A stretch of 17,842 bases of DNA from a virus. Taxonomy: Duplodnaviria; Heunggongvirae; Uroviricota; Caudoviricetes. Numbering within the stretch: position 1 is the first letter of the stretch; every line of letters starts with the position of its first letter. Shown in pieces: positions 12,001 through 15,000 of the stretch. A program made the position numbers. The stretch covers positions 1-17,842 of the IMG/VR virus record IMGVR_UViG_2703718801_000005. One strand, 5' to 3'.

Positions 12001-15000
12001 CACACTCCTCGGCGAGCGGGTGATGGACCGTATGACCATGAACGGTGGTCGTTGGGTGAATTTTAACTGGGAGAGCTGGCGGTCAAACGTTGGGCGTCAG
12101 GGTATGTGAGAATTTTTGACGAGGTAAATTTTCGATGGAAACCGTATTGCATGCACTGAAAGCGATGGGTAAAGCCAATTCTGTTGAACTGGCGGCGCGG
12201 CTTGATATCAGCCGTGAAGAAGTTCTCAACGAACTGTGGGAACTCAAAAAAAATGGTGTTGTTGATAAAACGGGTCACACCTGGTTTCTGGCTGTCGAAG
12301 GTGAATCCGGGGTAACCGAAGGGCAGGCACTACAATCTGAAGCGCCGGATGTGGTAACCGAAGAGGTCGCTCCAAAAGTTAGCGCTGACATGATGATTGA
12401 GTTTATCGCTCAGGAGGGGGCTAAAACCTGTGAAGAAATAGCGGGTAAGTTCGGAGTTACCACTCGTAAGGTTGCTTCCACTTTGGCGGTAGTAACAGCA
12501 ACGGGGCGCCTGGTGCGCGTGTCTATCAAGGGAAAATTCCGTTATAAAGTGCCTGACGTCGAAAACGGCGATTTGAGCGCGTCATCATCGCAGGATGAGA
12601 ATATCACACACGAAGCAGAAAACAGCGCGTCAGGCGACGAACTGAATCGTTTTCCGTTGATGTCAGAGGGCACGGCAAAGGCCTGTACAGATGAGTTTAT
12701 CCGGGATGTTCCGTCGTTCACCGAAAAATATGCTGGTGCAGTGACCCTTCCACCTCTACGGGCCGCCAGTCGTGAACTTCGTCGCGCCAAAAAACAGGTC
12801 CAGAAGTGGGAGCGTGTCTGTGCTGCACTACGTGAGCTGAATAAACACCGGGAACTTGTCATGCAGATTACCGATTCATCCAGCAGTATTGCATCGGAAA
12901 AGTGATAACTGGAGAGCTTATGGCAAAAGTATTTACACCCGAACAGCGGGAAGAACTGAAGGCACGTATTGTGGAGCTCGTGCGCCTGAATGGTCGGGGA
13001 ACGTTCAGGCAACTGGCTACTGAAACCGGAGTCAGCAAGACAGCTGTCAGACGTTTGTCCAGAGAACTGGTTGTCAGTGGCGCTATATTCGACTCAGGTT
13101 ATGGTTTATTCCCGTCTGATCAGGCGCGTAAGGACTGGCAAAATGCCCGCAAAAAACTCTCGAGAGCAAAGGCAAAGAAACCGGTTGTTATTGACCCTGG
13201 TCTTATCCGGGCATTACCTGATGGGGAAATCCGGCGCTACGACAGACGCTACAACATAATTTGTCGCGAGTGCCGTAACAGCGAAACGATGCAGCGTGTG
13301 CTGGCATTCTGGCGGGGGAGTGCAGAGGGATTGATGTTCTCCCCGTCGTGAATGACGGGGGCTTACGTGTTCAGAAAAGTGATTCATATAGAGGCTGAAT
13401 CTGATCTTTTTTGTTCACGTCTGGCTGCCACCATTGCAGGCAGAGTGAAGGCGTAGACTAAAAACATTTCGGTAAAACTCAGGATCTGGCTTGCCTCAAT
13501 TGGTGTGAAAACTTCATCTGTATGAACTGCTTTATTGGCATCAATTCGTACAATATGAGCCCATTCCTTCATCTGTTCAGTGATCAGCCCTTTTTTGTAA
13601 ATCATCTGAATACGTTGCGACAGCGATTCTTTTCCTGCTTCATCGCCGAGCAGTTTTTTCGTGGAGATATCGAGGACTCTGCGACAAAGAATTACCACTG
13701 TGTCGTACCGCCTCCTCTGTAAATCCTCTTTTGCCTCAACAAAAGTACGGTCTGCAACCGGGGGCGTATATTCTGGTGCGGTAATTTTTTTGACCGCAGG
13801 ATAGATCTTGCGGAAACGGTACTGGCTATTTCCTGAAATCAGAATATCGAGGTCTTTTTTCTGGCTTTCCGCCATGGGGCCGTGATAGTGGTCTGATGGG
13901 ATTTCAACAATAGCAACACCTCCTCGATGACAACTTCTGCATACAAAAGCGACGTTAAAAAGAGGTGTTTTTTCAATTTGTTTTTCGGCAAATGCCTCAA
14001 TAACAGCTCGCTCTTTTAAACAGTGTGGGCATGTAATGTCAAAGGAGACTAAACTCATGGATATTCCTCTCGAAATTAAAGAAATTAACGAAATCATTGA
14101 GGTTACTGATCGCCCCGAGTTTACCCTCATGCGTCGTTATGAAACAGGAACCGACGAACAAAAATACATCATGGTTGCAGCATTGGCTGTGATGGCGATA
14201 GAAAGGGAGCGGAGGGAAAAGGACGTAATGGTTATTCCGGCGAGAAATGATTCACCGGATTTGAGATGGCAGGATCCGGAGTGGGATGTGGCAATCCGGT
14301 GATTGATATTTCTCTGGGGTAAAGCGCCGCCAGAATGACGGCGCGGTGGTTAAGCATGAGGCGAAATTTCTGCCGGGCGGTATTTTGTTGAGAGATGAGA
14401 TACGTCAACTTCTCTTTCCGCTTTTTCAAGGCTCCATGCCGTCTGGAGACGAATCCATGAAGACGGAGTTCCACCCAGGACAGCAGCGAGACGAACAGCC
14501 ATTTCAGGAGATATTGTCGCATTACCTGAAACCAGTCGCTGAACAGTGGAAGGCGCGACATCAAGCGCTCTTGCCAGTTCCCTGATTCCAATATTCTGAT
14601 CTTCCAGAATATCAGCAATAATTTCTCCGGGATGAGGGGGGTTAAACATCGCCATTAGTGGTAATCCTCGTAGTTAAGAATATAAGCATCGCCGTTCCGA
14701 AACTCGAATGTGATTCTCCAGTTACCGGAGACGGTGACAGACCATGTATCGGATCTGTCACCCTGCAACTGGTGCAGCCTGTACCCGGCAAGGTTAATAT
14801 CATCAATGATTTCAGCTTGATCTATTACCTGAAGGCGCGTTCTCAGGCGTTTAACGTGATTGGGATTTACGCCTGATGCATTTCCTGTTTCAAAGAAACG
14901 TTGAAGTCCTTTGTGTTTCCAGCTTTTTATCATGCTTGTTTCCTGTTGCGTTACGCGAATCATTATAGCAGGTGTTGTGATGTACGCAACACTGAATTTG

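Follow-up and report, generated by a model that had tools for sequence, protein, structure and literature searches.

A divergent gene pair encoding a zinc-ribbon/HEPN protein and a small acidic partner: a candidate defence cassette of a lambdoid Shiga-toxin prophage

A two-gene cassette, in which a gene for a 224-amino-acid (aa) protein with an N-terminal zinc ribbon and a C-terminal DUF4145/HEPN domain is divergent from a gene for an 81-aa acidic protein, was found in the early region of a lambdoid Shiga-toxin prophage. The DNA analysed, referred to below as the window, comprises positions 1 to 17,842 (17,842 nucleotides, nt) of the IMG/VR virus record IMGVR_UViG_2703718801_000005. As judged from its sequence and its relatives, the 224-aa protein is probably a HEPN defence ribonuclease (RNase), of a family distantly related to the abortive-infection protein RAZR. 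The cassette may well combine this RNase with a small accessory protein that would restrain it during the lytic growth of the prophage itself.

The gene pair and the relation of its larger protein to RAZR

The features of the pair are the following (window coordinates).

13384..14058, minus strand: RNase-like gene, 224 aa; stop codon at 13384-13386; the protein begins MSLVSFDITCPHC
13885..14058, minus strand: N-terminal Cys4 zinc ribbon, codons 1-58 (C10, C13, C40 and C43); presumed trigger-sensing domain
13762..13884, minus strand: linker, codons 59-99, proline-rich, with invariant P87, P95 and P99 (YP..APxxTP)
13387..13761, minus strand: DUF4145/HEPN-fold domain, codons 100-224
13522..13548, minus strand: putative catalytic R-x7-H motif, RIDANKAVH, codons 171-179 (R171, N175 and H179)
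14057..14302, plus strand: small acidic partner gene, 81 aa; ATG at 14057, stop codon at 14300-14302
14056..14059, both strands: CATG with both start codons, which overlap by 2 nt
14042..14047, plus strand: Shine-Dalgarno sequence AAGGAG of the small gene, 9 nt before its ATG and within RNase codons 4-6
14065..14071, minus strand: Shine-Dalgarno sequence GAGAGGA of the RNase gene, 6-7 nt before its ATG and within codons 3-5 of the small gene

Within the shared CATG, the minus-strand ATG appears as its complement CAT at 14056-14058, and the ATG at 14057-14059 opens the plus-strand gene. Because the starts interlock, each ribosome-binding site, and any promoter, lies inside the coding sequence of the other gene. 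The minus-strand open reading frame (ORF) spans 13384-14130, and translation from 14058, the start in all homologues, gives the 224-aa protein. The upstream ATGs at 14130 (248-aa form of the large protein) and 14036 (88-aa form of the small one) were rejected as starts because the homologues and the PHROG profiles begin at 14058 and 14057. The two coding sequences are annotated identically in RefSeq and phage records, the first as 'DUF4145 domain-containing protein' or 'DNA binding protein' and the second as 'hypothetical protein'.

Pfam DUF4145 was matched at residues 118-197 of the 224-aa protein (E 3.8e-9), and the protein is a member of phrog_1305 (E 3.5e-63), which carries the PHROG label 'DNA binding protein'. 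A search for homologues gave 83 proteins, all with DUF4145, whose lengths are about 212-230 aa and most of which come from Enterobacterales. A total of 106 loci was collapsed at 90% identity into 51 clusters; R126, D130, R171, N175 and H179 are invariant in 51/51 of these and the four cysteines are kept in 50/51. Invariant positions in an alignment of 31 sequences were C10, C13, C40, C43, P87, P95, P99, R126, D130, R171, N175 and H179. DUF4145 was placed in the HEPN superfamily in 2013, and fusions to zinc ribbons were noted at that time (PMC3710099). The alpha-helical core and the conserved R...H pair by which the superfamily (Pfam clan CL0291) is recognised are both present here. In the AlphaFold2 (AF2) model, with a predicted local distance difference test score (pLDDT) of 89.7, a beta-rich N-terminal ribbon (strands 4-6, 20-27, 33-40 and 46-52, forming beta-hairpins) is followed by the linker and a helical C-terminal domain. 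The zinc ribbon showed weak profile similarity to RPB9 zinc ribbons (E ~0.26-0.3). No match was obtained when the 224-aa sequence was searched against PDB chains, and an NCBIfam search gave nothing useful.

The initial annotation of this DNA had described divergent ORFs sharing CATG 14056-14059, each with its own Shine-Dalgarno sequence, a Cys4 ribbon joined to a helical, HEPN-like C-terminal domain, and an acidic 81-aa partner. The sequence, ORFs and translations agree with the first of these and both Shine-Dalgarno sequences were read. The four cysteines and the helical C-terminal half (AF2) are present, Pfam and the invariant R171/H179 assign that half to DUF4145/HEPN, and the partner has an isoelectric point (pI) of 4.54, with 19 D+E against 12 K+R.

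Among characterised proteins the nearest relative is RAZR (ring-activated zinc-finger RNase, formerly PD-T7-4) of E. coli UMB1727 (PDB 9y9c; PMC13017515, PMC9519451). RAZR consists of a Cys4 zinc ribbon (residues 1-65), a conserved linker (66-79) and a DUF4145/HEPN RNase domain with catalytic R146 and H154, and substitution of either residue by alanine (R146A or H154A) destroys defence (PMC13017515). It is a single-gene abortive-infection system: RAZR forms an assembly about phage proteins that are ring-shaped (portal, Erf-like Gp77), after which it cuts single-stranded RNA; activation involves 24-mer assembly, cleavage is nonspecific, and expression of RAZR alone is non-toxic (PMC13017515). 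The 224-aa protein shares with RAZR (219 aa) the order of N-terminal Cys4 ribbon, proline-containing linker and C-terminal DUF4145/HEPN domain. R171/H179 aligns with R146/H154, with the same R-x7-H spacing, and the second arginine R126 with R105. The zinc ribbon is the most variable part in each of the two families (PMC13017515 for RAZR).

Comparison of the two families with hhalign gave 95.3% probability and E 2.2e-8 over residues 85-214 here and 64-186 of RAZR; the linker portion of this match joins residues 85-99 to RAZR 64-79, with P87, P95 and P99 conserved. The family profile matched 9y9c weakly (E 0.087), with VRIDSNGAVH aligned on CRIVGNQAVH. The 224-aa protein has a BLASTP identity to RAZR of 22%. 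By these sequence comparisons the family is a sister family of RAZR architecture, a distant homologue and not an orthologue, because the hhalign match is distant, the score on the PADLOC model of PD-T7-4 is low and the zinc ribbons are left unaligned. The initial statement that no described system was recognisable here was therefore too strong, a zinc ribbon joined to DUF4145 being the architecture of RAZR (PMC13017515; hhalign ~95%). Its proposal of an undescribed module holds in part: the large protein is of a known kind, and the conserved small partner and the interlocked, strand-polarised cassette appear to be undescribed in the literature searched.

RAZR-family genes were also recovered from phage collections, among them one 83% identical to a RAZR fragment. 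Unlike the pair studied here, this orthologue is co-directional behind an integrase gene and has no divergent small ORF. The small partner was absent beside the true RAZR genes examined; the single-gene RAZR thus differs from the present family, in which a conserved divergent partner occurs in 37/51 clusters.

In Streptococcus phage Javan59 (locus L031, 1483-1680), a RAZR-family gene has a divergent 65-aa ORF 54 nt upstream (MTDEEILQKENEDLREE). The starts of these genes are not interlocked, and by eye the ORF has no evident likeness to the small protein of the window.

Two other defence proteins were compared with the 224-aa protein. DS-38 (DefensePredictor, WP_001313577.1; PMC13092281) is likewise a validated E. 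coli defence protein with HEPN and zinc fingers; identity with it was rejected, since DS-38 has 366 aa, with HEPN at the N-terminus and several zinc fingers at the C-terminus (PMC13092281), and no CPHC-containing sequences were found in the tables of the DefensePredictor paper (PMC13092281). HepS of the Salmonella prophage Gifsy-1 (PMC13043305; PDB 9oik) is without a zinc ribbon and is not DUF4145 by the searches made.

The small partner and the distribution of the cassette

The small protein belongs to phrog_8371, where no function is assigned, and a direct search returned E. coli relatives only. Divergent small ORFs beside the DUF4145 homologues of other genera share with it the motif DRPE[FV].L.Q.YE...EQK....ALIGKLIEQDR.L. 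A profile of the small family collected 76 proteins, from Enterobacterales, Gilliamella, Alcaligenes and Zoogloeaceae, all 'hypothetical' and without a Pfam domain. An exhaustive profile search of 1.84 billion representative proteins gave just 43 matches, nearly all stand-alone proteins of 55-75 aa. AF2 predicted a three-helix bundle (helices 3-16, 20-30 and 33-57; pLDDT 94-98) with the motif-bearing core (DRPEF.L..RYE...EQK) at residues 1-57, followed by a disordered tail (58-81) that is specific to E. coli. The ratio of nonsynonymous to synonymous substitution rates (dN/dS) was 0.05-0.37 in close pairs, with a median of 0.28 over 175 pairs. Every copy of the small gene is intact, with the interlocked ATG as its start, and the other frames contain ~200 stops each. 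The small protein is thus a real gene product under purifying selection, as dN/dS is low, the alternative frames are full of stops and the AF2 model is confident. No relatives of known function were detectable for it, and no helix-turn-helix signature, basic surface or fold match to DNA-binding proteins was found.

Its divergence tracks that of the HEPN domain (r 0.74, partial r 0.64, by comparison of distance matrices) and not that of the adjacent zinc ribbon (partial r -0.09); this co-divergence, seen in the sequences, is suggestive only.

The small partner is present in 37 of the 51 RNase clusters, and in at least 30 of the 37 the CATG interlock is exact; it is also visible in independent gene calls, typically with one end at 3002 and the next start at 3001. 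Chance falls far short of explaining the arrangement, because this same interlocked pair is kept in those clusters between proteins just 35-55% identical. Small-gene homologues were also looked up in public assemblies (n=9). All six of the non-E. coli homologues from the first family search (Morganella, Alcaligenes, Citrobacter, two Xenorhabdus and Serratia) lie head-to-head with a DUF4145 gene. An E. coli cluster coding for an 85-aa form has no DUF4145 gene (partner-only form), and of two more distant relatives one is paired with a DUF4145 gene and one is not. In 5426 complete E. coli genomes the RNase gene was found in 36, with the small gene beside it in 36/36; the small gene was found in 48, 12 of them without the RNase gene. 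The co-occurrence of the two genes across prophages, which the initial annotation had proposed to check, is borne out by these counts (37/51 clusters and 36/36 E. coli RNase copies).

The pair occurs in varied surroundings: in replication/nin regions, in a module with PD-(D/E)XK, single-stranded DNA-binding and DNA polymerase A genes, beside baseplate genes, after the antiterminator Q gene, between lysozyme and spanin genes, and between NinB and NinG. In PhiR12_3, a 96%-identical match covers only window positions 13363-14354 (positions 164-1155 of a query spanning 13200-14500) and the flanks differ, with Roi on one side and another antitoxin on the other. Since the match is confined to this interval between different neighbours, the cassette is taken to be mobile and about 1 kb long.

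13363..14354, both strands: mobile two-gene cassette, approximate limits, from the extent of the PhiR12_3 match

In the partner-only E. coli prophages, a plus-strand 166-aa ORF and ~300 nt stand in place of the RNase gene, with the breakpoint at window position 14061. The replacing ORF (3182-3682 of locus L003; ~2199-2699 of loci L112-L116) had no Pfam match, and there is no called gene in the ~300 nt that follow. Ten of the 14 clusters without a partner form a 212-aa subfamily (beginning MAMLSID.TCPHC...; loci L008, L009, L017 and L087-L110, with the DUF4145 gene starting at 6001 or 4001). In this subfamily the gene has no small partner and is divergent from, and 25-40 nt upstream of, the terminase small-subunit gene; the Cys4 and R/N/H residues are kept.

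At five chromosomal places of Symbiopectobacterium sp. RP (loci L018-L022), the small gene, intact in four of them, is followed by NinB, and only the first 19-25 codons of the RNase gene are present; these copies probably descend from one disrupted, multiplied element. In one Citrobacter locus, a CAP12/PCTIR TIR-domain gene (L029, 5313-6074) is found beyond a DNA polymerase A gene, ~2 kb downstream of the cassette; this phage may thus carry a further defence gene.

Strand polarity was counted for ORFs of at least 90 aa at 36 representative paired loci. On the strand of the small gene 192 flanking ORFs were found, versus 39 on the RNase strand, and the nearest ORF is co-directional with the small gene at 30/35 loci on one side and 29/35 on the other. 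The RNase gene is thus an island antisense to the phage operon around it, whose direction is taken up again by the small gene.

A classical type II toxin–antitoxin or addiction pair is a co-transcribed operon in which the toxin never occurs without its antitoxin. The present pair was rejected as such, its genes being divergent and the RNase gene being intact without the partner in 14/51 clusters. The divergent genes with overlapping starts likewise differ from the operonic HEPN toxin–antitoxin pairs, and the small protein has no similarity to the MNT nucleotidyltransferases of HEPN-MNT (HepT/MntA) systems or to the phage T4 Dmd of the RnlA/LsoA systems.

A proposed role and its alternatives

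The organisation of the cassette is consistent with the following mechanism. The RNase gene, antisense to the lytic operon, would behave like a moron gene, that is, an accessory gene dispensable for lytic growth, and a promoter of its own would drive it in the lysogen. On the model of RAZR, the Cys4 zinc ribbon would sense a protein of an infecting phage; this would bring the HEPN domains into an active arrangement, the R171/H179 site would cut RNA and translation would stop. Since the small gene points along the surrounding lytic operon, lytic transcripts made upon prophage induction would run antisense through the RNase gene and dampen the RNase. The same read-through would yield the small protein, which would bind the RNase and keep it inactive. 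The outcome would be self-immunity, in that the prophage would not abort its own lytic growth.

An accessory, negative role for the small protein is favoured because intact RNase genes occur without the partner, the partner occurs without the RNase gene, RAZR is non-toxic alone, and the small gene follows the direction of the lytic operon. It is not expected to be essential, because the members without a partner keep their catalytic residues and the RAZR orthologues have none. Inhibition of the RNase, or self-immunity, as the function of the small protein is nevertheless possible rather than probable. A more specific form of this assignment is put forward tentatively: the small protein might be the first dedicated inhibitor of a RAZR-type zinc-ribbon HEPN RNase, expressed only when the lytic operon fires, and the cassette a switch that defends in lysogeny and disarms on induction, through antisense read-through and inhibitor together. 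The partner-only copies (12/48) might then be anti-defence genes, directed at lysogens with the RNase.

Several observations weigh against the proposal of a defence RNase with a restraining accessory. On the PADLOC PD-T7-4 model (PDLC04109) the 224-aa protein scored 16.2 bits (E 1.3e-3) in a partial match (residues 84-183), as compared with 288-330 bits over the full length for true RAZR orthologues; 15/31 family members reached E <= 0.01 on this model, the best with 2.8e-7. The hhalign comparison leaves the zinc ribbons unaligned, and therefore the trigger and the mode of oligomerisation may differ from those of RAZR. The 14/51 clusters without a partner retain all catalytic residues, so that those prophages either solve self-targeting otherwise or face no such problem. 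A strict promoter scan of 13250-14450 gave no sites. Candidates from a relaxed scan across loci, at 75 and ~103-118 nt upstream of the RNase start in several lineages and inside the small gene, recur loosely with inconsistent placement, and none is claimed as a promoter; as no promoter was located, expression timing is read from gene orientation. The interlock could be conserved as a frozen arrangement, since both genes would be damaged by an insertion or deletion at that point. The fold of the small protein is uninformative on function, and the distance correlation with the HEPN domain could merely mirror fast, saturated evolution of the zinc ribbon.

The alternative that fares best is a two-component defence in which the RNase needs the small protein as a positive partner (for example a co-sensor, adaptor or assembly factor), with back-to-back promoters active in the lysogen. 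The tight linkage and conserved interlock would be expected of such a system, as would a small family as narrow as the RNase subfamily that it accompanies (the 43 representative clusters mentioned above) and a divergence that follows the HEPN domain. The partner-less clusters, with their complete catalytic residues, argue against it, as does RAZR, which functions as a single gene (PMC13017515). Intact small genes are found without the RNase gene in 12 of the 48 E. coli genomes and in one distant relative, and the agreement of the small-gene strand with the lytic operon would be needless for a cofactor expressed in the lysogen. We therefore regard a required partner as unlikely. Were the small protein such a cofactor, the family would constitute a new two-component relative of RAZR.

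The same interlock and strand polarity, both conserved, could instead serve a switch at the level of RNA or transcription, in which the mutually antisense 5' regions allow lytic read-through to silence the RNase and the small protein is a regulator or plays a minor part. Each ribosome-binding site is located within the opposite gene, as each promoter must be, and the promoter-like sites 75 and ~103-118 nt upstream of the RNase start recur in several lineages. Purifying selection acts, however, on the amino-acid sequence of the small protein, which has a confident fold; the protein lacks a helix-turn-helix, a basic surface and any fold match to DNA-binding proteins, its E. coli form has a pI of 4.5, and the strict scan found no consensus promoter in the region scanned. 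A pure switch is accordingly judged distinctly unlikely.

Historical linkage, in which the small gene is an unrelated phage early gene trapped by the overlapping starts and the RNase works alone, would draw on the difficulty of undoing a start-codon overlap by mutation and on the breakpoint in partner-only phages, which falls exactly at the junction (14061); because of this breakpoint the RNase gene can be regarded as exchangeable as a module of its own. The pair recurs, however, in unrelated modules (replication/nin, lysis, DNA polymerase A and after Q) and spans Enterobacterales, Gilliamella (Orbales), Alcaligenes and Zoogloeaceae, so that historical linkage would require co-transfer many times. 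The small family is, moreover, essentially restricted to the context of the RNase gene, and mere trapping is considered very unlikely. Finally, a role of the 224-aa protein outside defence, as a phage regulatory nucleic-acid-binding protein acting on the transcripts or DNA of the phage itself, is hardly credible: nucleic-acid binding is common among zinc ribbons and PHROG 1305 and RefSeq phage records carry the label 'DNA binding protein', but this label is an untested annotation, the catalytic R...N...H of HEPN is invariant, the closest characterised relative is an abortive-infection RNase, and the gene is an accessory antisense island found in only 36/5426 E. coli genomes.

If the cassette does restrain its own RNase on induction, its interest lies in a problem common to prophage abortive-infection systems that sense conserved phage proteins, which are liable to target their own prophage when it is induced. 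Known solutions are few. HepS avoids self-targeting through a non-triggering variant of the tail-tip protein and not through a partner gene (PMC13043305). BstA resembles the present cassette as a prophage abortive-infection defence with a cognate self-immunity determinant embedded at the locus; it differs in that BstA is not HEPN and that aba is a DNA element within bstA and not a protein-coding partner (PMC8585504). The cassette, with two genes in ~1 kb, may provide a third solution; it is compact and lends itself to testing, and a single base change at 14059 would separate the two functions. The reach of the RAZR mechanism would also come to include a second family, borne by prophages and present among the Shiga-toxin phages of Shigella and pathogenic E. 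coli. An inhibitory small protein would provide a tool to switch off RAZR-type RNases and a marker of anti-defence genes of temperate phages.

Prophage context and neighbouring genes

Over window positions 13200-14347, identity is 100% to Shigella phage 75/02 Stx and ~99.8% to POCJ13. Pfam scans gave the gene order integrase, Exo (YqaJ), Bet (RecT family), Gam and cI-like repressor, then replication genes, DUF1627, DUF977, the pair, higA/higB (minus strand), two antirepressor-like genes and NinB. The neighbouring genes referred to below are the following.

14655-14963, minus strand: HigB toxin, 102 aa (Pfam HigB-like toxin, E 1.9e-21)
14350-14655, minus strand: HigA, 101 aa (Pfam HTH_3)
12902-13351, plus strand: DUF977 protein directly upstream of the cassette, 'LygF' or 'Ren-like exclusion protein' in phage records
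2461-3246, minus strand: Bet-like RecT-family single-strand annealing protein, 261 aa, beside Exo (1784-2464) and Gam (3252-3548)
3545-5593, minus strand: 682-aa protein with a partial Exonuc_VIII match only (residues 53-197, E 4.9e-12)

The HigBA pair that had been placed immediately beside the cassette was confirmed by Pfam, and it forms a separate antisense island (14350-14963). In phage 75/02 Stx a different RelE/ParE and regulator pair occupies the position of higBA, and in E. coli phages with the small gene only, RelE and two helix-turn-helix genes do so; the site looks like a hotspot for the exchange of toxin–antitoxin genes. The PhiR12_3 cassette likewise adjoins toxin–antitoxin genes other than higBA, and other pair loci, in lysis, DNA-polymerase or nin modules, have no adjoining toxin–antitoxin genes. 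Inclusion of higBA in the module was rejected, as homology to 75/02 Stx stops at 14347 and a different RelE/ParE pair lies beyond. The meaning initially attached to the adjacency of higBA was not upheld: the cassette ends at ~14354, its neighbours vary between loci and the adjacency is incidental.

A GC-rich hairpin at 14324-14344 (GCGCCG...CGGCGC), where the ends of the small gene and higA converge, was discarded, its folding energy being no better than that of shuffled sequences (z -0.52). The DUF977 protein could provide a second exclusion function adjoining the cassette. The Bet recombinase of the prophage itself, if ring-forming as is assumed here, is a candidate self-trigger of the RNase, since a ring-forming Erf-like recombinase triggers RAZR.

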